The notes below the pieces were generated by a model. That model was not told where the DNA came from. It saw nothing but the letters and a program-made list of their open reading frames with translations, and made no database searches. A stretch of 61,448 nucleotides of DNA, from the NCBI GenBank assembly GCA_964366535.1, contig CAYIUC010000002.1, forward strand, positions 10,773 to 72,220, in the 5' to 3' direction. Source of the stretch: an uncultured Candidatus Saccharibacteria bacterium. Its GTDB lineage: Bacteria > Patescibacteriota > Minisyncoccia > Phycocordibacterales > UBA10002. The translations under genes were made by a program, and so were the position numbers. Below, one piece after another: positions 1 to 51,056 of this stretch. Numbering within the stretch: position 1 is the stretch's first letter; each line of letters opens with the position of its first letter.

Positions 1-3
1 ACA

Positions 4-39
4 CTTATGATTAAGATACGATCGTAGCTTAATGATAAA
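4..39. repeat. 36-bp AT-rich near-palindrome, copy 1 (consensus CTTATGATTAAGATACGATCGTATCTTAATCATAAG)
   Basis: Read directly. Left arm perfect, right arm has 3 mismatches. Overlaps a TAAAAT -10-like box 14 nt before the ATG at 55. Other copies at 669-704 and 40806-40841. Confidence 0.8.
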
Positions 40-54
40 ATATGGGATAACGAT

Positions 55-648
55 ATGACATACCGAAAACGAAACAAAAAAGAGCACAGCAGGCCGAAAC
101 ATCGTGTGGGCCCCGTTCAACGAAAAATCTTACTGCTCCTTCTTGGCGGTCTTGCACTAGGATGTTCGGGCTCACCGAGCACCTCTTGGAAGATAATACG
201 AGCGATGCATAAAGAATGGAGAGACGTCAACAAACAAAACGCGGAGCGCGCGATTGCAGTTCTCTATAAAACAAAGCTAATAGAAGCGCGTAAAGATGAG
301 GGTGGAACGGTTACAATGGTTTTGAGCGATAACGGTAAAAAACGCGCGCTCACCTACAACCTCGGGACTATGCAGATTAAAAAGCCAGAAACATGGGACG
401 GGAATTGGCGTGTTGTACTGTTTGATATACCAGAAGAAAAACGCGGAGCGCGCGATTCCTTGCGTACGCGCCTTTTGAATCTCGGATTCTTTGAACTCCA
501 ACGCTCGGTACTGGTGCACCCTTATGAATGTCGTGATGAAATTGAATTCTTGATAGAAATGGGAGATATCCGCCCGTATGTCCGTTATATGCGCGCGCAC
601 CACATAGACAACGAACCGCATCTAAAAAGATTTTTCCGTATTGCCTGA
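55..648 (+). CDS. PaaX-like / Cas2-fold domain protein (putative DNA-binding regulator)
   Basis: 197-aa ORF. The segment WDGNWRVVLFDIPEEKRGARDSLRTRLLNLGFFELQRSVLVHPY resembles the PaaX C-terminal/Cas2-like family. Bracketed by the 36-bp palindromes. Confidence 0.55.
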   Translation: MTYRKRNKKEHSRPKHRVGPVQRKILLLLLGGLALGCSGSPSTSWKIIRAMHKEWRDVNKQNAERAIAVLYKTKLIEARKDEGGTVTMVLSDNGKKRALTYNLGTMQIKKPETWDGNWRVVLFDIPEEKRGARDSLRTRLLNLGFFELQRSVLVHPYECRDEIEFLIEMGDIRPYVRYMRAHHIDNEPHLKRFFRIA

Positions 649-668
649 CACTATTTTATCTACCCTAG

Positions 669-704
669 CTTATGATTAAGATACGATCGTATGTTAATCA
701 TAAG
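669..704. repeat. 36-bp AT-rich palindrome, copy 2 (best copy, one mismatched pair)
   Basis: cttatgattaagatacgatcgtatgttaatcataag read directly. Lies in the convergent spacer between the PaaX-like gene and ligA. Confidence 0.85.
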
Positions 705-761
705 TACAGAAAACTGATTTGGAATGTAGTACATATATGAAGTGAAGAAGCGGCTCAGGAT

Positions 762-8129: not shown

Positions 8130-8135
8130 ATAAGT

Positions 8136-8163
8136 AAACGGCTAAATGCGTGTTTAGCCGTTT
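8136..8163. terminator. hairpin AAACGGCTAAA-tgcgtg-TTTAGCCGTTT directly after the pilT stop; repeated at 33469-33496
   Basis: 11-bp stem flanked by A-run/T-run, so possibly bidirectional. A second, about 90% identical copy lies in the decayed DUF559 unit. Confidence 0.5.
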
Positions 8164-8164
8164 T

Positions 8165-9232
8165 TTACAAAAGCCGCTCAAGTACGGCGGGATTTAATGA
8201 GTACGAAAATGCGGTCTCGGGAGCAATCTCGCCGCGGCGGACTAGCTCTGCAAGCGAGCGGTCCATATCTATCATCCCCTGCTCCGCGCCAGTTTGAATA
8301 ACTGTCTGGATTTCATGCGTGCGCTTCTCGCGAATAAGGTTCGCGACAGCCGCATTGGAAATAAGGAGCTCGTACGCCGGTACGCGCCCGCCCGCTACGC
8401 GCGGCACTAGCCGTTGCGAGAATATGCCCGTGAGCGACCCCGCAAGCTGCATGCGAATCTGCTCCTGCTGGCCCGACGGAAATACATCCACGATGCGCTC
8501 AATCGTCTGCGCGGCGTTGTTGGTATGTAGAGTAGAAAAGATGAGGTGCCCCGTCTCGGCGGCGGTCACTGCGGCGGAGATGGTGTCTATGTCGCGCATC
8601 TCGCCAATGAGTGCTACATCAATATCTTGACGGAATAGCGAGGTAAGTGCGGTACGGAAGTCCTTTGTATCAAGCCGCACCTCTCGCTGATCTATGATCG
8701 ACTTTTTCGGCTCGTACACATACTCAATCGGGTCTTCAATCGTCATAATGTGCTCCGCGCGCGTTCCGTTTACCATATCTATGAGCGAAGCAAGAGTGGT
8801 GGACTTGCCGCTTCCAATCGGACCAACGACTAAGAAAAATCCTTGTTGGCGCTTGGTGAAGCTCTCCAAAATCGGCGGCAAATGTAGTTCCTCTAGCGTC
8901 TGGATCTTTCGAGGAATTAGCCGGAGCGCAAACGCTATACCGCCCTGCTGGAAGTAGCCGTTTACGCGAAAGCGCGCTTTGTCGGCATAGCCCCAGGACA
9001 CATCTACCTCCTTGTCCGCAAAAAACCGCGCTAATTCTTCTTTGTCCAAAAGTGCGTGTGCAAATCCTTCGGCATCGGTGTGAGATATTTTCGGCTGTTT
9101 TTCTAGAGGAAACAGCGCGCCGTTCACGCGGATTGTAGGCGGCTTCCCTTCCGAAAGGTGTAAGTCGGACGCGCCCTCCTTCAGCACATACTCCGCAAGC
9201 CCCTCTAGTTCTTTTGTGTAGTCGGATGACAT
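8165..9232 (-). CDS. pilT: twitching-motility ATPase PilT
   Basis: Walker A GPIGSGKST plus Asp/His boxes. Start taken at MSSDYTKELEG to avoid overlap with the upstream gene (ORF track extends to 9283). Confidence 0.9.
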   Translation of the reverse strand: MSSDYTKELEGLAEYVLKEGASDLHLSEGKPPTIRVNGALFPLEKQPKISHTDAEGFAHALLDKEELARFFADKEVDVSWGYADKARFRVNGYFQQGGIAFALRLIPRKIQTLEELHLPPILESFTKRQQGFFLVVGPIGSGKSTTLASLIDMVNGTRAEHIMTIEDPIEYVYEPKKSIIDQREVRLDTKDFRTALTSLFRQDIDVALIGEMRDIDTISAAVTAAETGHLIFSTLHTNNAAQTIERIVDVFPSGQQEQIRMQLAGSLTGIFSQRLVPRVAGGRVPAYELLISNAAVANLIREKRTHEIQTVIQTGAEQGMIDMDRSLAELVRRGEIAPETAFSYSLNPAVLERLL

Positions 9233-9266
9233 ATACAACAAGTATACTACACACTTTCTTTGTTTG

Positions 9267-11546
9267 CTACTCACGCACACCAAATAATTGAGAAAAAAGA
9301 AAGTGCAACCTAGAGTAAAATAAAGAAGCGAGTTGCATGGGTGCCTGTACGCCTGCGGAAGGAGTTACAGTAACGGTTACTGAATCTGATGCTCGCCCTG
9401 CACCACCATCTTCGACACAGGTTACCGTATAGGTTTTTGAAGTTTGCGCTATAACACGGATACCACCAGAAGCGTCTCCAGAAACATCTCCGGTACACTG
9501 TTCCACCTTGCCTGTTGTGGTATATGTAAGCCCAATTATGGTACCGGCAGTCACCGTTACAGGTCCGTCAGTCGGTCCGTTACCGATATTTACCTTCAAG
9601 TCCACCAAAATGCTTTTTGGCGGTTGCGACTGCATAACCGTCACCTTAAACTCTTTTACCGCCTCAAGACCGCTTTCCAAATTCACCACCTTATACCCAA
9701 TAGGATACACACCAGAAACCGTATCCGTAGGAACTGAAAAATTAATGAATCTACCGTCTCCATCTCCAGGATTGACAGTAACTTCTTTGGCGACATCCCA
9801 AACGGAAAAAGGGGAATTGTCGTCTAGCATGGTGTAGCTCCACAGGTTAGGAATTATCGGAATGATTCTAAAACGAGACGGCCCGCATATTGAGTAATCA
9901 GTATTAGAGAAACCCATACTCATCACACCAGATTCGCCTTCGTATAACGACGCTTTATCTGGAAATACGAAATTGGGACTGATGAAATGTTTGGTAATCG
10001 CTGGAACATTTCGCACACATGAAGGCATTTTAAGCACAACATCGAAAGTAATACTGTTGGATTCTTGATCGGCGATTGGACCAATTGTAATACCACGCGA
10101 CTCGTCAAGAAAGACTCGCTTTGACCCATTTATTGAAAGAGCCGCATCTTTTACATCTTCATCCCAAGACATTTCTGACGGGTTTGCATCAACGAGATAC
10201 GGCGCAAAAGCGCCACTCGGATCTTTTCGTACCACCGTGATAAAAAGACCAGAGGAAGTGTTGCTTGCCGCCTTAAGATTCACATCAAAACCAGCGCCGT
10301 TCCGATATTCCGCATAAATATACTCTCCGGTTGCAGATCCTGGTACTGCAATTTTTGCGACATGTGCGCCCCCTGGTGTCTCGAAAGAATTAAGTGTGTA
10401 GCGTCCGCTCTGCGTGATAGACACAACATCGTTTTGTGTCAGCCAACCGAGCGATTCTTTCAATACTGAACTAAAATGCAGGCTATATTTCCCGGCACCC
10501 ATAACATCAAAATAATTTTGGTACTCTCGTAGCACACATTCGCCAGATACTTGTTGCATGCCGCAATCAAGCCCATTTGAATGATTCACCCCGAGCGCAT
10601 GTCCAAGTTCATGGCTAATGCCGTAGTCGTTCCCTGTCCATGAAAACGGTTGCGGGAAATGGCCTGCTGGGTGCACATCAGGAGATATAGAAACAATGGC
10701 GTCTGCAAAATTGAAGACGCGCCCATTGATGGAGTGCTGGCTAGATCCGATTGCTGCGCAATCACCGACGGAAAGGTTGGCGAGAACCAATACGATTGAG
10801 TACGACGCTAAATCAATAGCATTGCTTGATACAGCACTTGCTATATCTGCGTCAGTAACAGAACCGCATGTTGCATTTAGCGGTCCATCTCGTTGAAGTG
10901 TGGTCCAAGGAAGCGTTTTGCCAGAAAGCCGAAAACGACCATATGACTGTTCCTCAAAAAATTTCTGAACCTGGCCTTCAAATACCAGTGCGTGTAATTC
11001 CTCGCGTGTATATGGTCGCTCACCTGAAGTAAGAAAGTCCACAGGAATAACCAAAATGGCTGTGGCAACACCGTCCGTGAATGCACCTGCTTGTTTTGAC
11101 GGTGTTGATTTGCGTACTATCGGTGTTATTGCGGAGGCAGGCGGAACAATTGGCTGGACAACTGACGGCTTGCCCGACACATTCACGACGACAGCATCAT
11201 CATCGCGATTGCCTTCTTTGTCTATGCATGCGGCTTTAATTACAACAGAGCGGCTGATACGACCAGAAACCGTGCCGCTTGTCTTAATGTCGTTTTTGCT
11301 CCAGTTCCCTTTGCATCGCGCCGCCCCTTCGGAAAGCCACGAAACAACGATGCGGTCTCCTGAATTAACTGTAATCGGTCCATCTTCGCCGTTTACCTTA
11401 AGGTCTATAGAAACGCCATCAAAGATATCTTCTGACTCAAGAAATGCATCGGTGCCTTGCGCCACAAGCACACCCACACTAACCAAAAACACCAAAACAA
11501 ATGTAAGTACAAAAAAGAATGGGGTACGACAGCGAGTGTATGTCAT
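9267..11546 (-). CDS. secreted metzincin-like zinc metalloprotease flanked by duplicated two-Cys Ig-like domains
   Basis: 759 aa with an N-terminal signal/TM. Has HELGHALGVNH (HExxHxxGxxH) and a downstream DVMG. N- and C-terminal DLKVNG.DGP.TV domains resemble each other. Confidence 0.6.
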   Translation of the reverse strand: MTYTRCRTPFFFVLTFVLVFLVSVGVLVAQGTDAFLESEDIFDGVSIDLKVNGEDGPITVNSGDRIVVSWLSEGAARCKGNWSKNDIKTSGTVSGRISRSVVIKAACIDKEGNRDDDAVVVNVSGKPSVVQPIVPPASAITPIVRKSTPSKQAGAFTDGVATAILVIPVDFLTSGERPYTREELHALVFEGQVQKFFEEQSYGRFRLSGKTLPWTTLQRDGPLNATCGSVTDADIASAVSSNAIDLASYSIVLVLANLSVGDCAAIGSSQHSINGRVFNFADAIVSISPDVHPAGHFPQPFSWTGNDYGISHELGHALGVNHSNGLDCGMQQVSGECVLREYQNYFDVMGAGKYSLHFSSVLKESLGWLTQNDVVSITQSGRYTLNSFETPGGAHVAKIAVPGSATGEYIYAEYRNGAGFDVNLKAASNTSSGLFITVVRKDPSGAFAPYLVDANPSEMSWDEDVKDAALSINGSKRVFLDESRGITIGPIADQESNSITFDVVLKMPSCVRNVPAITKHFISPNFVFPDKASLYEGESGVMSMGFSNTDYSICGPSRFRIIPIIPNLWSYTMLDDNSPFSVWDVAKEVTVNPGDGDGRFINFSVPTDTVSGVYPIGYKVVNLESGLEAVKEFKVTVMQSQPPKSILVDLKVNIGNGPTDGPVTVTAGTIIGLTYTTTGKVEQCTGDVSGDASGGIRVIAQTSKTYTVTCVEDGGAGRASDSVTVTVTPSAGVQAPMQLASLFYSRLHFLFSQLFGVRE

Positions 11547-11940: not shown

Positions 11941-12006
11941 ATTGAAGTTAAGTATAGTATACACCAACGACAAAAGTTCATGTGCGGTTATGCACAAGGT
12001 GAAAAG

Positions 12007-12072
12007 ACACCCCCTCTTCCCTCGTCCGCATTAGGCGGACTCGGGCTTTCTCCCCCTTAGGATAAGGGCGAG
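12007..12072 (+). repeat. double-hairpin repeat arm (forward orientation)
   Basis: acaccccctcttccctcGTCCGCattaGGCGGACtcgggctttctCCCCCTTAggaTAAGGGcgag. Confidence 0.75.
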
Positions 12073-12101
12073 AATAAGAAAGAGAAGTACAATACAAAGA
12101 T

Positions 12102-12458
12102 ATGCAGGTGCATAACAAACAAGAACTATACACGCGTAGAAAAAAGCTTCGTACGGGCGCAACGCTACAAGAAGCAAAACTGTGGGAACGCTTACGAAGA
12201 AAACAGTTGGGCTACAGATTCCGCAGGCAACATAGTGTCGGGTGGTACATTCTTGATTTTTATTGTCCAGAAAAGAAACTTGTCGTGGAGATTGACGGGG
12301 CGCCACACAAAGCAAGCAAGGAGTATGACGCGGTGCGCACGAACTACCTAAACCTACGCGGTATTCAGATACTGCGATTTTGGGATGATGAAGTGAGTAA
12401 CCATATTGAAAAAGTGGTATCAAAAATTAAAAATACTTTATGTCTTACCTGCCCTTAA
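12102..12458 (+). CDS. DUF559 (Vsr-like endonuclease fold) domain protein
   Basis: 118 aa. LRTGATLQEAKLWERLRRKQLGYRFRRQHSVGWYILDFYCPEKKLVVEIDGAPH...ILRFWDDEV. The stop codon lies inside the right arm. Confidence 0.85.
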   Translation: MQVHNKQELYTRRKKLRTGATLQEAKLWERLRRKQLGYRFRRQHSVGWYILDFYCPEKKLVVEIDGAPHKASKEYDAVRTNYLNLRGIQILRFWDDEVSNHIEKVVSKIKNTLCLTCP

Positions 12459-12500
12459 CCTAAGGGGAGGTGTCCGCCTGAGGCGGACGGAGGGGTGGTT
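12447..12500 (-). repeat. double-hairpin repeat arm (reverse orientation)
   Basis: acctgCCCTTAacctAAGGGgaggtGTCCGCCtgaGGCGGACggaggggtggtt. Confidence 0.75.
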
Positions 12501-12528
12501 TTATTTTTAGTGCGAGAAGGAAAATCTT

Positions 12529-25406: not shown

Positions 25407-25478
25407 ACGCCCGTAGCTCAATGGCAGAGCGTTCCGCTTATATCGGAATGGTTGGGGGTTCGAGTCCCTCCGGGCGTA
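25407..25478 (+). tRNA. tRNA-Ile with anticodon UAU (reads AUA)
   Basis: Cloverleaf folds by hand: acceptor ACGCCCG/CGGGCGT, D stem GCTC/GAGC, anticodon stem TTCCG/CGGAA with loop cTTATat, T arm GGGGGttcgagtCCCTC. Confidence 0.8.
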
Positions 25479-28552: not shown

Positions 28553-28660
28553 GCGGGCAGTATAGCGCAAAAAATATATGGAACCAAATGCTTGACAAAT
28601 TATTCATTTAGAATGTAAAAACAAGAGCGGGGGGTAGGGTTTAGCGCATACATCCGAACT

Positions 28661-28716
28661 GACCCCTCTGCCTCGCTTACGCTTCGGCATCTCCCCTCTC
28701 AAAGAGGGGCGAAGGG
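28661..28716 (+). repeat. double-hairpin repeat arm (forward)
   Basis: gacccctctgcctcGCttacGCttcggcatCTCCCCTCTcaaAGAGGGGcGAaggg. Confidence 0.7.
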
Positions 28717-29067
28717 AACTTGCCTCTGCAAAGTTTGCATTATAACTGCAAGTACTTCTTCTAAATGCTTTTCGATTTCGTTGTCCCAGAATCTAAGAAC
28801 CGTTACGCCGCGTTCGCCCAAATAATCCGTTCGCACCTTATCATATTCTCTCTGCCGAGAATGATGCGAACCGTCAATTTCTATGGCGAGTTTCTTCGCA
28901 AAACAATAAAAATCTACAATGTACCAACCAATACTTTCTTGTCGACGAAATTTGAACCCAAGTTGATTTTTCCGTAGTCGCGCCCACAGTTTTATTTCTT
29001 GTGGCGTTGCGTCTTTCCGCAATTGTTGCCGACGCGCCTTCAACTCTTTTTTGTTATGCGTCGGCAT
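28699..29067 (-). CDS. DUF559 (Vsr-like endonuclease fold) domain protein, paralog 2
   Basis: MPTHNKKELKARRQQLRKDATPQEIKLWARLRKNQLGFKFRRQESIGWYIVDFYC...IEIDGSHH...VLRFWDNEI. About 58% identical to copy 1 by hand count. The track ORF extends into the arm (29169). Confidence 0.85.
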   Translation of the reverse strand: MPTHNKKELKARRQQLRKDATPQEIKLWARLRKNQLGFKFRRQESIGWYIVDFYCFAKKLAIEIDGSHHSRQREYDKVRTDYLGERGVTVLRFWDNEIEKHLEEVLAVIMQTLQRQVPFAPL

Positions 29068-29087
29068 AGTATCTATTGTACCTCTTC

Positions 29088-29148
29088 CTCCTCTCCCCCT
29101 TTTTGAAAGGGGGAGTACCCGAGCGAAAGCGAGGGGGTAGGGGTTAGC
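29088..29148 (-). repeat. double-hairpin repeat arm (reverse)
   Basis: ctcctCTCCCCCTTTttgAAAGGGGGAGtacCCGAGCGaaaGCGAGGGggtaggggttagc. Confidence 0.75.
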
Positions 29149-29187
29149 ATACCTACCAAGCACTTCCACTTGATGGGGAGAGGAATT

Positions 29188-32762: not shown

Positions 32763-32948
32763 TTACCAAGAGGACTTGCGCACGCCCGGGATAAGCCCGT
32801 CGTTTGCAAGCTCGCGGAAGCAAATGCGGCATACGCCGAAATCGCGCATATAGGCGCGCTTCCTGCCGCACCGGAAGCACCGCAACACAGTGCGGGTAGA
32901 AAACTTTGGCGTCTTTAACGCGCGCGCTATTACCGATGTCTTCGCCAT
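32763..32948 (-). CDS. rpsZ: 30S ribosomal protein S14, zinc-binding type Z
   Basis: 61 aa with [21 protein letters not shown] (CxxC...CxxC). Confidence 0.95.
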
Positions 32949-33091
32949 AATAAAACTAGACGCCCAAAAGAGCGTCCATCTACCCTATCAAACCCCGCCC
33001 ATTTTGTCCATACCGATGAACCACCAACCCCTATCTGTTCTTGAGGCATTCTTCCAAGTATCTGCTATAGCAAGTAGTTGGGAGAATGTAA

Positions 33092-33157
33092 GACACCCCT
33101 CCCGCTTCGCCCCGCCAACCGGCGGGGCTTGTCCCTCCCCTTATGTTAAGGGCAGGG
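33092..33157 (+). repeat. double-hairpin repeat arm (forward)
   Basis: gacacccctcccgcttcGCCCCGCCaaccGGCGGGGCttgtCCCTCCCCTTatgttAAGGGcAGGG. Confidence 0.75.
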
Positions 33158-33159
33158 AA

Positions 33160-33465
33160 AAGAAAAAAGCGCACTCACAGAGTGCGCTCCGATAAGATGA
33201 TAGAGTGGTAATCTTTCGCGTCACCTACACCGTTTTTAGGGGTTTATGAGGTCGATTACACCCACCGATGGCAGTCGAGTCTACTGATTGGCCGCCGTCG
33301 ACATTGCCATTTGATCACATCTATTCTAGGGATTTTGATTGCTTATAAGATTTCTACAATCATTACCCCACGCTCTATTGACAGCATAGCAAACCATGTC
33401 CTAAAAGTCAAGCGTTGGTGCAACTTCATTTTGTTGATTGTCAGAAAACCCTTGTTTTGCAACAT
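33160..33465 (-). pseudogene. decayed DUF559 gene
   Basis: Minus-strand frame reads MLQNKGFLTINKMKLHQRLTFRTWFAMLSIERGVMIVEIL-stop, then AIKIPRIDV. Compare intact IKLW..QLGFKFRRQESIGWYIVDFYC and AKKLAIEIDG. DNA shares tctacaat..tacc with copy 2. Confidence 0.5.
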
Positions 33466-33506
33466 ATTAAACGGCTAAACGCGCGTTTAGCCGTTTTTGA
33501 TTACCG

Positions 33507-33580
33507 CCTGCCCTTTTCCAAAGGGGAGGTGGCGAGCCCCGCCACGCCGTAGGCGGGGCGGGGCGAGACGGAGGGGTTGT
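33507..33580 (-). repeat. double-hairpin repeat arm (reverse)
   Basis: cctgCCCTTttccAAAGGGgaggtggcgaGCCCCGCCacgccgtaGGCGGGGCggggcgagacggaggggttgtt. Confidence 0.75.
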
Positions 33581-33592
33581 TCCCGACTTGTA

Positions 33593-33661
33593 CTAACCCC
33601 CTCCCCCTCGTCCCGCTTACAGCGGGACTCGGGTACTCCCCCTTTCAAAAAGGGGGAGAGG
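33593..33661 (+). repeat. solo double-hairpin repeat (forward), back-to-back with the arm at 33507-33580
   Basis: ctaaccccctccccctcGTCCCGCttacaGCGGGACtcgggtaCTCCCCCTTTcaaaAAGGGGGAGagg. Closest to the arm at 29088-29148. Confidence 0.7.
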
Positions 33662-33671
33662 AAAAGTGTTT

Positions 33672-34223
33672 TTATTTCTTCCCCTTTTCGCGCTTGGAGA
33701 ATGGGAAGCCGAGGTGAGCAAGGAAGGCGCGCGCTTCGTCAGGATTTTTGGCAGTTGTGACGATAGTAACCCCCATACCGAATACATCTTTCAATTCTTC
33801 ATCGGCTGTTTCCGGAAACACAGTGTGCTCGCGGACGCCAATCGTCATATTGCCCATTTCATCTACCGATGATTGCGAAAGCCCTCGAAAGTCCTTTGTG
33901 CGCGGGAGCGCCACCTGTATAAGCTTATCTAGAAACCCAAACATTCGTGCGCCGCGAAGTGTCGCAAGCGCGCCCACCACATCGCCCTCTCGCGACTTGA
34001 AAGATGCGATGGACTTTTTCGCGGCGCGCGGACTGGGCTTTTGACCCGCAATCTTCGCGAGGCGGTCCAATACTATGTCAATCTTTTTCTTGTCCTTAAA
34101 CGAGCCGACACCCGACGACACGGACACGGAGACAAGGCGCGGCGCCTGCATCACATTCTTGTAGCCGAATGTGTCTTTGAGCGCAGAAAACGCGAGTTTT
34201 TGTTTTTCTTTAATCGTTTTCAT
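33672..34223 (-). CDS. rplE: 50S ribosomal protein L5
   Basis: GYKNVMQAPRLVSVSVSSGVG...KSIASFKSREGDVVGALATLRG...GNMTIGVREHTVFPE. Confidence 0.95.
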   Translation of the reverse strand: MKTIKEKQKLAFSALKDTFGYKNVMQAPRLVSVSVSSGVGSFKDKKKIDIVLDRLAKIAGQKPSPRAAKKSIASFKSREGDVVGALATLRGARMFGFLDKLIQVALPRTKDFRGLSQSSVDEMGNMTIGVREHTVFPETADEELKDVFGMGVTIVTTAKNPDEARAFLAHLGFPFSKREKGKK

Positions 34224-37738: not shown

Positions 37739-37782
37739 ATCCAAAGTATACCCGCGAATGTGATAGCATACAAAACACACAC

Positions 37783-37850
37783 AACCACCCCTCCGTCTCG
37801 CCCCGCCAATCGGCGGGGCTCGCCACCTCCCCTTAGGTAAAGGGCAGGGT
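37783..37850 (+). repeat. solo double-hairpin repeat (forward)
   Basis: aaccacccctccgtctcGCCCCGCCaatcGGCGGGGCtcgccaCCTCCCCTTaggtaAAGGGcAGGgtg. No inverted partner within 1 kb. Confidence 0.75.
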
Positions 37851-37934
37851 GAAAAATCTCTTATGTAAAAATAGATTCCGACCGTAATCTATTTCTACAT
37901 GGACATATTCGTGCGAATAAAAAGAAAAGAAAAA

Positions 37935-40793: not shown

Positions 40794-40805
40794 CCGCCTT
40801 CCCGA

Positions 40806-40841
40806 CTTATGTTTAAGCTACGATCGTATCTTAATAATAAA
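40806..40841. repeat. 36-bp AT-rich palindrome, copy 3 (more diverged)
   Basis: cttatgtttaagctacgatcgtatcttaataataaa, in the convergent spacer between recG and the RelE-like toxin. Confidence 0.75.
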
Positions 40842-47915: not shown

Positions 47916-50031
47916 CTTGCTCGTACATAAGTGTATACGCGTCTGCGCGAGAAAATAAACCGCGAGGTTCTACAAATACATAGTCGGCGATTGGTATAAC
48001 TTCTCCTGCACGAATCCGCATAGCATACTCACTAACGCGAAGAGTTAACTCTTCTTCAGGAATTATAGGTGGGGGCATTTTTGAAAAGAAACCATCGAAT
48101 GTGCGCGGGCGGTAAAACTCTTTAAATAGGTACAACGCATCGCGAGACACCCACACACGAAATTCGTCTTCAGATAAACCCCAAAGCGCCCCAAATGCAT
48201 ATGCGAGTTCCCATAGTTCTTCTTGAGATGCGAGCGTACTGAACCCATCCGTAACAAATGAACGATTCTCGGTAAACAATCTAAGCGCATAGTTGGTATG
48301 CGCCCGTTCGCTCGCCACCATTGACCCTGATGGCGTATGTTCGTTGAGCCACTGGTACGCATTTGCTTCGGGTATCGGTATGCCCCGTGTATGCGCTTCG
48401 TCACGGCTTAATCTGTACTGCCCGTAAAATGCGTGGGCGAAAAACAAAACAAGAAATGCGACGGCGTATATGCGAACCGTCCTTGCGGAAACACGCGACG
48501 CAAGATATCGCTTCCACAACCATACAACTACAACTCCGAATGCCAACATCACTGGCAAAAATGTCTCGCGATACCAATGGTCGGGCTGTGGCGAAAAGCC
48601 GAGTACTAATTGCACATTAACGACAACAAAATAAGCTGCGAGAAGAGAGATTAAAAACACCGCGGCAGATGAAAGGTGCTTTCTGGAAGCGTAGATAAGC
48701 GCGCCTATCCATACGAGATGCCGCGCGTATGTCTTCCACACCGACCCGAAGCGGAAATGCCGCCCGATTTCTACGCCCGCAATTCGAAACATAAGGTCTT
48801 CGTAGTGCGGCAAGCGGCGAAGCGCCGCAAAGTTGAACCAATACGGAATTGAGATAATGCCGCCAATACCAAAGATGCCCGCGCCTGACTTTACGGCGCG
48901 CCAATTGCGACGAAAAACAAACCATAAAATAGCGAGGACTAATGCAACCGTGAGATATGCCCAATCATAAAGATAAGTATAAAAGAGGATCCCAAAAAAT
49001 ACACCGCCGAAAACCACATCTCTCCTGACACCTGTGCGTAGAGCACGGAATATGAAAAGAAGCGCAATCGTATAAAAAATAAAGGTTATTTTCGGATATT
49101 CAAAACTTGAAAAATAAAGCAATGCGTTTTGCGGAAGAATAGAAACAGAAGGAGAAAGGAGCGCCGCAAGCGGCGATACCATAAAAACAGAAGCGAGCAG
49201 AAGCGCCGGCTTTGCGCGCCGAAATACCTCGCGCAAAAGCGCATACACCGCAAGGAAAATAAGCGGCGGGATTAAGAAATCGGAGACGATATAAGCGCGC
49301 TCCATGCTCAAAAGCGCCTTGCCAAGACCGCCCATAATCAAAGGATTCAATACCGGCAAGAGAGACGGCAACTCTAATTCGCCGCGCGCGAAGAAGGCAT
49401 TCGCGCGCGGCCCGTAGTAGCCGCCGGCGTCTGGATCGGACGCATAGGTAACCGGCGTGTATACTAACCCACCCGGCATAAAACTAGGCATAAGTAAGTG
49501 GTGTATGCCGTATAGCAGAGAAACGGCTAGCGCTACAACGAGCACGGCACGGTGAGATACGAAAAATGAACGCATGAGTACTGCCCAATGCGCAAGCGGC
49601 GATCGCGGATGGAAAATAACGAAGCGATATACGAAGAAGCTACCTACCGCGATCGTCGCGGCGGCAATGATCTGCGCGAAGAAGTACCAAAGCCCCGCCC
49701 ATTCCACGAGCGCGTACATAAAAGCGGCGTTGATTCCGATATTGGTGATTTGTAGTCCTAAATAAAAAGCGCTTTGTGTAGCAACGGCTTTTCCAGACGC
49801 GCTGCGATCTCCAAAGGTATAAAACTTCTGGAGTACAAAACTCACGACCACAGCCACGCAAAACGCCGCAGTGGCGGACACAAGATAGTGCCACCCGACA
49901 TACTCTGTCAGCGCAAACAGAATGCCAAGGTCAATGGCGGTAGAGGTACCGCCAGCAATAAGGTAACGGATGCCTATTGGAAGCCCGAATAAGAAATTGC
50001 GCATGCGAAGCATTATAACAGAGTGCGCCAT
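47887..50031 (-). CDS. GtrA-like domain fused to a large polytopic membrane domain (possible GT-C-type transferase)
   Basis: N-terminal about 140 aa reads IRYLIAGGTSTAIDLGILFAL...VVSFVLQKFYTF...FFVYRFVIF (GtrA family). More than 12 further TM segments and a soluble C-terminus follow. Confidence 0.55.
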   Translation of the reverse strand: MAHSVIMLRMRNFLFGLPIGIRYLIAGGTSTAIDLGILFALTEYVGWHYLVSATAAFCVAVVVSFVLQKFYTFGDRSASGKAVATQSAFYLGLQITNIGINAAFMYALVEWAGLWYFFAQIIAAATIAVGSFFVYRFVIFHPRSPLAHWAVLMRSFFVSHRAVLVVALAVSLLYGIHHLLMPSFMPGGLVYTPVTYASDPDAGGYYGPRANAFFARGELELPSLLPVLNPLIMGGLGKALLSMERAYIVSDFLIPPLIFLAVYALLREVFRRAKPALLLASVFMVSPLAALLSPSVSILPQNALLYFSSFEYPKITFIFYTIALLFIFRALRTGVRRDVVFGGVFFGILFYTYLYDWAYLTVALVLAILWFVFRRNWRAVKSGAGIFGIGGIISIPYWFNFAALRRLPHYEDLMFRIAGVEIGRHFRFGSVWKTYARHLVWIGALIYASRKHLSSAAVFLISLLAAYFVVVNVQLVLGFSPQPDHWYRETFLPVMLAFGVVVVWLWKRYLASRVSARTVRIYAVAFLVLFFAHAFYGQYRLSRDEAHTRGIPIPEANAYQWLNEHTPSGSMVASERAHTNYALRLFTENRSFVTDGFSTLASQEELWELAYAFGALWGLSEDEFRVWVSRDALYLFKEFYRPRTFDGFFSKMPPPIIPEEELTLRVSEYAMRIRAGEVIPIADYVFVEPRGLFSRADAYTLMYEQDGFRIYEKP

Positions 50032-51056
50032 TCCGCCGCCTGTTTCTGTATATGCGCTTGCGGCGATGGCAGCGCAAAGAAACTTGCGCGCGCCGCTTCT
50101 CCTAGCCGCACTCTTAACGGCTCATCAACAATGAACCGTTCCATTGCTGCAGCGAGCTCGCCTTCGCCGCCAATGGGAATCACGATTCCATTTTCTCCGT
50201 TTTGTATAAACTCTCCCGCACAGCCCACATCGGTCATTATAATCGGCAGTCCATATGCAGCCGCCTCCACAACCGCAACCCCCCACCCTTCGCTGTCGGA
50301 GGTGAGAAGAAACGCATCGGCCTCTTCGTAGAACAGCGCCAAATCTTTCTGCTGCCCCTCAAACACCACCCTATTCTCTGATTTTAAACTTTTGACCTGC
50401 GACTTTAGCCACCATTCCAGTATTCCACTACCAACAATCCGCAATCTCGCTTGTGGAAATTCCCGCACAATACGCGCGAGCGCGCGAATTTGCATTGCGA
50501 TATTCTTAACAGGCACCAGCCGCCCAACCGTTAGAAAAGTAAATGCGTTCCCTTCTGCCTCTCCACCTTTTCTAAGGGGGAGTACCCCGAGCGGAGCGAG
50601 GGGGGTGGAGGTGGTTTGGGTATATACAGGCAGTACATACACTTTCTCAGCCGATGCACCAAAATCAACGGCTAACTGCATTAGCCGTTGGCTTACTACC
50701 CTCACCTTGTCTGCACGGCGCAATACAAAACCGGCAATCATCTTTCGTATGCAGTGCAACTTTTCAAACCCGTGCACCTGGACCTCCAATGACGCATGGA
50801 ATCTACGCGCGACGAGATACGCGAGGAGCGCAAGGTACGCCGTGTCTTGCACGGTTACAATATCAAACTTATCTTCTATAAACGCGCGTCGCGCGCTCTT
50901 CCACAAACGCAAGAACTGCGATTGTCTACTCCCCGCGCCATCAGGTACAAATACGACAATCTCCACTGCCTCCTTCCGAAGCGCCGCGAGCCGCTCTGCG
51001 GCGAGCGTCCCCTCGCGCAGTATTTCCCCGTCCAAACTAAACATGCATATTCTCAT
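50013..51056 (-). CDS. GT4-family glycosyltransferase carrying an in-frame copy of the double-hairpin repeat
   Basis: FLTVGRLVPVKN...LTSDSEGWGVAVVEAAAYGLPII. The linker TTSTPLAPLGVLPLRKGGEAEG is encoded by the repeat at 50558-50616. Confidence 0.8.
   Translation of the reverse strand: MRICMFSLDGEILREGTLAAERLAALRKEAVEIVVFVPDGAGSRQSQFLRLWKSARRAFIEDKFDIVTVQDTAYLALLAYLVARRFHASLEVQVHGFEKLHCIRKMIAGFVLRRADKVRVVSQRLMQLAVDFGASAEKVYVLPVYTQTTSTPLAPLGVLPLRKGGEAEGNAFTFLTVGRLVPVKNIAMQIRALARIVREFPQARLRIVGSGILEWWLKSQVKSLKSENRVVFEGQQKDLALFYEEADAFLLTSDSEGWGVAVVEAAAYGLPIIMTDVGCAGEFIQNGENGIVIPIGGEGELAAAMERFIVDEPLRVRLGEAARASFFALPSPQAHIQKQAAEWRTLL
50558..50616 (-). repeat. double-hairpin repeat copy (reverse orientation) inside a CDS
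   Basis: gcctCTCCaCCTTTtctAAGGgGGAGtacCCCGAGCGgaGCGAGGGGggtggaggtgg, compared with 29088-29148. Confidence 0.7.

Follow-up and report, generated by a model that had tools for sequence, protein, structure and literature searches.

The DNA that separates the ribosomal protein genes rplE and rpsZ in a Patescibacteria (Parcubacteria/Paceibacterota) genome from Hainich groundwater raises a simple question: is it the remnant of a gene cassette inserted into an operon, or non-coding DNA at a place where one transcription unit ends and another begins? The window analysed here, a stretch of 61,448 nucleotides (nt), carries its ribosomal gene cluster on the minus strand (the rplE-rpsZ locus is also present on ENA contigs from site H52; four contigs with identical RplE represent the same genome). 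A preliminary description had read the spacer as a third copy of a cassette that carries an intact DUF559 gene elsewhere in the window, with its inverted arms maintained while the gene decays; its account of the sequence features was partly confirmed. We favour, with about even confidence, a different reading, in which BoxC-like repeats form a cluster devoid of genes around orphan non-coding DNA, at an operon boundary that is natural and tolerant of insertions. In outline the unit resembles the two DUF559 cassettes of the window, without a gene or a detectable gene remnant.

Gene ends taken from the list of open reading frames (ORFs) place the spacer at 723 nt, in agreement with the roughly 720 bp first described. 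Read along transcription, rplE (33672-34223, minus strand) encodes ribosomal protein L5 and is the last gene of the upstream transcription unit, as judged from its ORF, a Pfam Ribosomal_L5 match on an identical product and tblastn to 80 relatives. Its stop codon is followed at 9 nt by a repeat copy of subtype b (the third arm, 33592-33665, plus strand), and then by the right arm, a copy of subtype a in R orientation with an enlarged central hairpin (33501-33581, minus strand). Beyond it lie T1, a perfect 28-nt palindromic hairpin (33469-33496, 100% complementary), some 280 nt of AT-rich DNA within which a promoter-like box falls (33411-33383), a predicted terminator, T2 (33160-33190, minus strand), and, abutting T2, the left arm, again of subtype a and in F orientation (33092-33163, plus strand). 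The interior enclosed by the two subtype-a arms (33158-33506) measures 349 nt and has no detectable homolog. Earlier characterized as AT-rich and devoid of a long ORF, it indeed has a GC content of 0.43 against 0.51 for the window, and its longest ORFs span 55 amino acids on the plus strand and 40 on the minus strand. On the rpsZ side, the left arm is followed by a 42-nt imperfect palindrome beside its outer end (33047-33088, 83% complementary), a TGGACA-N17-TAGGGT box, a hairpin with a U-run and the start of rpsZ (32763-32948, minus strand; S14 type Z, 61 amino acids, supported by its ORF and by tblastn to more than 60 loci). The closest relative compared, a Candidatus Taylorbacteria metagenome-assembled genome (locus L005) whose RplE is 83% identical, lacks the 42-nt palindrome in its spacer.

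The arms belong to one dispersed family. An nhmmer search detected nine copies in the window and none further, including the third, right and left arms of the spacer (E = 3e-17, 2e-14 and 7e-15, respectively), and a model built without these three copies still recovered them at E = 3e-13, 2e-9 and 2e-8. Six of the nine are the inverted flanks of three units, namely the rplE-rpsZ unit and two cassettes with an intact DUF559 gene: cassette 1 (12004-12502, plus strand; gene at 12102-12458, PF04480 E = 6e-35) and cassette 2, between secY and adk (28657-29150, minus strand; gene at 29067-28699, PF04480 E = 3e-35). The recognition of a third unit was thus sound in that the same repeat family bounds both intact genes. 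Its inverted arms were also correctly seen, at about 33092-33163 and 33501-33581, although as a pair they are imperfect, being complementary over 24 nt at 79% and over 23 nt at 83%. The units were further said to be of the same size, which holds only approximately: their full lengths are 491, 486 and 489 nt, and the spacing of their inner palindromes is 374 nt here versus 399 and 403 nt in the cassettes. The third arm and the right arm form a back-to-back doublet with their outer ends facing across a spacer of about 17 nt (R-N17-F); the L005 genome carries a doublet of the same kind after secY, with no gene inside, and in both genomes such close inverted pairs mix subtypes a and b (window doublet, 33501-33665). 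Among the remaining copies are a solo arm of subtype a (37782-37855, plus strand, nhmmer), to which the right arm is 95-96% identical over 37783-37848, and one inside a gene, described below, while 35 nt of the third arm are 100% identical to the cassette-2 arm at 29089-29123.

Each arm is a GC-rich repeat of 60-80 nt with three parts. A polypyrimidine block lies outermost, a variable hairpin comes next, and the innermost part is a second hairpin, the 5' half of which is a mirror image of the outer block. Inspection of the alignment shows that the variable hairpin changes its sequence from copy to copy and stays a hairpin. All nine arms possess mirror blocks of 7-9 nt, which fall into five co-varying variants (CCCCTCC/CCTCCCC, as in the right arm, CCCCTCCC/CCCTCCCC, as in the left arm, CCCCCTCTT/TTCTCCCCC, CCCCTCT/TCTCCCC and CCCCCTC/CTCCCCC), with the symmetry kept in every one of them.

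Judged by this block pattern, the arms are a variant of the BoxC/PIT/TM(ECO) intrastrand-triplex repeats. The first record of BoxC, from 1992, is at the E. coli envM (fabI) locus (Bergler 1992; PMC4666352); PIT elements were studied by Hoyne & Maher (2000, 2002), and a survey of the family came from Holder et al. 2015 (PMC4666352). Like these repeats, the arms are short, GC-rich and dispersed (nine copies in 61 kb), join a pyrimidine block to its purine complement and to a third block in mirror image, and occur both singly and as closely spaced inverted pairs in which two subtypes are combined (PMC4666352 for E. coli; the doublets of the window and L005 here). A strict three-block scan for triplex motifs across the 61 kb matched the subtype-b arms alone, the third arm included, and the same scan recovers the E. 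coli site beside ycjD. There are also clear differences. Most arms carry an extra hairpin of 12-45 nt between the second and third blocks, which sets them outside the short loops admitted in published searches (1-6 nt in Holder 2015, PMC4666352; 0-10 in Hoyne 2000); one arm sits inside an ORF, whereas TM(ECO) repeats are reported as always intergenic; and the repeats here frame DUF559 genes, whereas Holder et al. draw no functional link to flanking genes and mention neither ycjD nor endonucleases in their text (PMC4666352). Actual triplex formation by the arms is a prediction from a block pattern on one strand, and triplex formation in vivo has not been seen even for the E. coli repeats (PMC4666352).

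The arm within a gene (50554-50617, minus strand, nhmmer) lies in frame inside an ORF for a GT4 glycosyltransferase (50013-51056), in the linker between two Pfam-matched regions, where it encodes approximately amino acids 146-168 (TQTTSTPLAPLGVLPLRKGGEAEG). Rickettsia palindromic elements likewise insert in frame within genes, a behaviour that this arm resembles. The E. coli repeats are also tied to local rearrangement (PMC4666352), and one contig of the genome studied here (L004, Logan contig ERR3858110_205721) connects rplE with the antisense end of secY by way of two arms, as at an inversion junction. The junction is a 35-nt stretch identical in the two oppositely oriented arms (window 33628-33662 and 29089-29123), and is due either to a genuine variant with a 4.5-kb inversion or to chimeric assembly; at arms, other contigs from this genome are broken or contain runs of N.

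Whether the interior is a dead DUF559 gene is the point on which the readings of the spacer divide. The preliminary description had claimed that its minus strand still reads as broken DUF559 and had named a six-frame profile search with PF04480 as the check. This search, run with Pfam on the six-frame translation with stops masked, gave no match at E ≤ 10, the outcome that had been set in advance as speaking against the claim. A hidden Markov model (HMM) of the lineage, built from 45 close homologs and run with filters off, reached a best domain of -2.6 bits in the interior, a value equalled by 263 of 300 dinucleotide shuffles. Frameshift-tolerant alignment of the profile to the DNA scored 21.3 on the minus strand and 23.0 on the plus strand, compared to 22.9 ± 3.5 for shuffles and to 325 and 327 for the two real DUF559 genes. 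Local DNA alignment of the minus strand, the one for which the claim was made, stayed at shuffle level against both cassettes (the interiors of cassettes 1 and 2 align with each other at a score of 211); the plus strand gave a marginal match to cassette 1 only (z = 3.0, equalled by 7 of 300 shuffles). As for the stretch of DNA identity with the second cassette, the shared 8-mer TCTACAAT is what chance would supply, with about two shared 8-mers calculated for two sequences of some 350 nt.

To gauge the power of the frameshift-tolerant alignment we simulated decay on the real DUF559 genes. Detection succeeded in 85-100% of trials at up to 30% substitution, in approximately 45% at 40% and in about 5-12% at 50% or more; since detection is lost only at about 40-50% substitution, an ancestral DUF559 gene would have to be near saturation. 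Codon periodicity (period-3), which is detectable in the real genes (p = 0.04 and 0.025), is absent from the interior (p = 0.17). In addition, the interior is closed at either end by a hairpin with no relation to DUF559 (T1 and T2), at the places where a DUF559 protein would have its start and C-terminus encoded, and T1 matches a hairpin at 8135-8165 at 93-94%. With T1 copied elsewhere and both ends formed by well-shaped hairpins, this arrangement is not a product of drift. Neither DNA comparison nor tblastx found a homolog of the interior in the corresponding gaps of 80 relatives or elsewhere in the retrieved loci (1.4 Mb), and no DUF559 gene occupies the rplE-rpsZ gap in any of the 80 relatives; the 55-amino-acid ORF of the plus strand had no match among 1.84 billion representative proteins. 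In our view the interior is spacer that evolves fast, or DNA that was captured, and not a DUF559 pseudogene.

Several observations nevertheless weigh against a gene-less origin and are those that a decayed cassette would explain. The outline and size of the unit are like those of cassettes 1 and 2; its inner-palindrome spacing, although shorter, comes near theirs, a match that independent insertions would produce, by our estimate, with a chance of about 10%. Both bracketing arms are of subtype a, and the interior has the GC content of the cassette interiors (0.42 and 0.43). The profile score within a colinear band is 21.3 on the minus strand versus 17.0 ± 3.3 for shuffles (equalled by 19 of 200, p of about 0.1), which is a hint at most. 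We infer from sequence both the events of termination and initiation in the spacer and the way in which the repeats arrived at the junction. On the rival reading, a third DUF559 cassette would have lost its gene past recognition while selection, gene conversion or re-copying kept its arms. It is possible that arms are maintained while the cargo decays: the close identities of the right arm to the solo arm and of the third arm to the cassette-2 arm point to dynamic or homogenised copies, and E. coli offers a precedent, where the 3' end of ycjD has a duplicate that lies stranded with a BoxC copy on either side. Given the silence of Pfam, the lineage HMM and both kinds of alignment, the 40-50% or greater substitution needed to hide a gene, the missing period-3 signal, the hairpins at gene-end positions and the relatives that have no such gene in this gap, we regard this origin as doubtful, though it is the strongest of the rivals considered.

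A second rival treats the spacer as a MITE-like unit (MITE, a miniature transposable element with inverted repeats), a non-autonomous transposon that moved in one piece with the arms as terminal inverted repeats and with outward-facing regulatory signals. The size (less than 500 nt), the inverted arms at its ends, the promoter-like and terminator signals that it carries and the absence of the unit from L005 all fit this description. The unit is also like Correia/NEMIS, RUP, ERIC and other MITE-like elements, small inverted-repeat units found in operons that may carry promoters or terminators. Correia/NEMIS elements, for instance, carry outward-facing regulatory signals. The unit departs from these groups in having a single-copy interior, with no second copy in the window or the fetched loci, and no related transposase linked to the arms; direct reading of the flanks of every arm in the window revealed no target-site duplication, and the arms occur also singly and in outward-facing doublets. 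We rejected membership in the MITEs on the missing target duplication and the missing second copy, and consider transposition as one piece improbable. Two other identities were set aside on anatomy: the arms are inverted and not direct, and no GTTRRRY core was seen on reading, as an integron attC site would have, while a REP-RAYT unit would flank a different protein family from the DUF559 genes found here. Carriage by phages is rare (3 of 50,697 records), and the PADLOC defence library returned weak restriction-enzyme-like matches at most.

The signals inside the interior invite yet another explanation. On the operon strand, as first described, T2 has the features of an intrinsic terminator, with a GC-rich stem of 11 bp (33190-33166, minus strand) and a U-run on the transcribed strand (tail TTTCTTTTCC); it is the dominant hairpin in the fold, and its activity is a prediction. 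The box TTGACT-N17-TATGCT is also present on the minus strand (33411-33383), where it matches the consensus at 9 of 12 positions and carries a TGn extension; its status as a promoter fared less well, with three promoter-like boxes found where 1.1 ± 0.9 are expected, a count not above shuffles. Together the two could define a small non-coding RNA gene of about 215 nt, lying between two operons with the repeats inserted at its borders. The box has an extended -10 element and resembles the rpsZ promoters of the lineage, the strong terminator stands at a fitting distance, and the transcript would contain no ORF. The implied 217-nt RNA, however, folds no better than shuffles (z = -1.6) apart from the T2 hairpin, and the interior lacks a homolog in the 1.4 Mb of related loci. 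At gathering score, the window's only Rfam 15 matches are a tmRNA and a pair of tRNAs; at E ≤ 10 Rfam yields sub-threshold hairpin noise in the spacer and no family. With the box count at chance as well, we give this explanation little credence.

On the plus strand T1 has a run of five T, and on the minus strand its T-rich tail is weaker. Its copy at 8135-8165 adjoins an ORF for a T2SSE/PilT-like ATPase (8165-9283, minus strand). As near-identical hairpins (93-94%) occur at the unrelated positions 8135-8165 and 33468-33498, some terminator hairpins in this genome are repeats themselves.

What makes room for such DNA between rplE and rpsZ becomes apparent from related genomes. The preliminary description held that this spacer is normally a few nucleotides long. 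In 80 related loci (L005-L084), gathered by tblastn with RplE, the gap ranges from about 50 nt to more than 5 kb and often holds unrelated ORFs (in Paceibacterota these reach 825 amino acids). Spacers of 366-506 nt with no ORF are present in eight relatives, and seven relatives have a predicted intrinsic terminator within about 100 nt after rplE. The L005 spacer, at 79 nt, aligns to that of the window over the 44 nt nearest rpsZ alone, and this short segment contains the signals of interest: where the window has TGGACA-N17-(TGn)TAGGGT (33010-32982, minus strand), L005 has TTGACA-N17-(TGn)TACGAT at the orthologous position, followed by the same leader hairpin and U-run (32957-32978 in the window, minus strand), which lies between the candidate promoter and the rpsZ start and is seen in other relatives too. 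More broadly, a strong box of this kind lies no more than 110 nt upstream of rpsZ in 17 of 63 related loci, where 1.5 would be expected and 200 shuffles gave 6 at most. A conserved and enriched promoter next to a variable gap indicates that rpsZ-secY is very probably driven by its own promoter. The earlier suggestion to search for the promoter that must drive rpsZ-secY beyond the terminator is thereby answered with a predicted candidate, and the terminator would not orphan these genes. Given such a promoter, a terminator after rplE would be the normal state, and insertions would be tolerated at the site.

The rpsZ leaders themselves come in two types. In the first, a strong promoter (TTGACA-17-TAGTAT) precedes a hairpin and U-run (L005, L059, L034, L083, L057, L060, L026, L027 and others), and the second has a conserved motif, GATCTGTGTTTCTCCTTAAGG...TTTAAGAAA..ACACAAGATATC (L082, L047, L058, L042, L063, L073 and L076). 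Both may be ribosomal-protein leaders.

The history that we favour, that of a gene-less repeat cluster, would then run as follows. The junction of rplE and rpsZ would be a native boundary of two transcription units in this Patescibacteria lineage, which three repeat copies colonised in this genome. Two inverted copies would have come to bracket 349 nt of orphan, AT-rich, non-coding DNA with a terminator hairpin at each end, and the third would pair with the right arm as a back-to-back doublet. The rplN-rplE transcript would likely end at T2 and rpsZ-secY would be transcribed from its own promoter at 33010-32982, and termination after rplE would be harmless because rpsZ has that promoter. The unit itself, a cluster of repeats with no gene at an operon boundary that permits insertions, would matter little and is a modest finding; the more interesting lead is the link between DUF559 genes and the repeats that frame them.

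To our knowledge, no function or partner of the BoxC/PIT repeats has become known since 1992, nor do we know of a role for DUF559, a very large family. Cassettes 1 and 2 encode clear members of the DUF559/YcjD family (PF04480; PDB 3hrl), whereas the rplE-rpsZ unit has no detectable DUF559 sequence. The closest solved structure to the window proteins is 3hrl (E = 1e-31), with a distant match to 3r3p, the Vsr-fold homing endonuclease I-Bth0305I (E = 4e-4). Upstream of the DUF559 start, at a distance of about 5-10 nt, there is a conserved TACAAT box (window 12085-12101 and 29068-29085; L085, L089 and L090), whose position suggests that DUF559 mRNA may be leaderless or nearly so.

The physical association of DUF559 genes with triplex-type repeats is solid. 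In a survey of 80 metagenome loci with DUF559, from many lineages (within L085-L172), a triplex-type site of three blocks lies no more than 150 nt from the gene in 61. Such sites occur at 7.2 per kb near DUF559 and at 0.20 per kb elsewhere on the same contigs, a 36-fold enrichment; in 1.3 Mb of Paceibacterota ribosomal loci their density is 0.024 per kb. Of 70 testable DUF559 genes, 42 have significant inverted repeats at their flanks, but none of 42 control ORFs from these contigs does. The 3' arm begins before the DUF559 stop codon, or no more than 10 nt after it, in 32 of 43 loci with such repeats. Dispersed copies are also nearer to the DUF559-adjacent copies of their own contig than to those of other contigs (0.56 versus 0.30). 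Orthologs of the window genes are found in a groES-DUF559-secG arrangement in four other species (L085-L091, L174), at least three of which have inverted arms with the same inner palindrome and the stop codon inside the 3' arm. Since the position is the same in all four, the closest DUF559 orthologs look vertically inherited and not freely mobile.

The association extends to E. coli K-12 (locus L173, NC_000913.3 1351000-1351830), where the DUF559 gene ycjD lies next to fabI and ends in such a hairpin, so that the type locus of BoxC (envM/fabI) abuts ycjD. The gene is followed by a duplicate of its own 3' end and then by a classic TM(ECO) type A site; the duplicated segment, about 45 nt, lies between two BoxC-type hairpins (about 2806-2972 of L173, between ycjD and fabI), and this stranded gene end is a possible model for cassette decay. 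Across 5,426 E. coli genomes, the repeat family of the ycjD site is found at 17 places in the median genome. Our literature searches, whose coverage excluded subscription-only journals, found no report of a link between DUF559 and BoxC/PIT.

In its layout the system recalls REP/REPIN repeats and their RAYT genes: inverted copies of a hairpin repeat, other copies of which are dispersed singly and in doublets, flank a gene for a nuclease-fold protein, this gene holds a syntenic position in several species (here groES-DUF559-secG), and dispersed copies resemble the gene-adjacent copies of the same contig. It differs in that the protein is a DUF559 member with a Vsr-like PD-(D/E)XK fold and not an HUH/Y1 transposase, in that the arms lack GTAG/CGTC heads, and in that an action of DUF559 on the repeats is hypothetical. 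We infer a functional link from the association and propose, tentatively and at less than even confidence, that DUF559 (YcjD-like, Vsr-fold) nucleases are dedicated partners of BoxC/PIT/TM repeats across bacteria, as RAYT is for REP. Under this proposal DUF559 would bind or cut the repeat structures and so spread, maintain or recombine them, and the two DUF559 genes of the same genome would act in trans on the rplE-rpsZ unit, a member that lacks a gene. Spanning candidate-phyla bacteria and, through ycjD, E. coli K-12, the link provides a directly testable hypothesis in a tractable organism and, if true, could explain why these repeats mark unstable genome sites.

Two further features of the window deserve mention. 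A different palindromic repeat of 35-43 nt (CTTATGATTAAGATACGATCG...) flanks, in inverted orientation, a gene of 197 amino acids with a PaaX_M (Cas2-like) domain (window 3-705), and a third copy of it lies downstream of recG (40805-40840). The window also encodes, at 25407-25478, a tRNA-Ile with the anticodon TAT (UAU), which is uncommon in bacteria.

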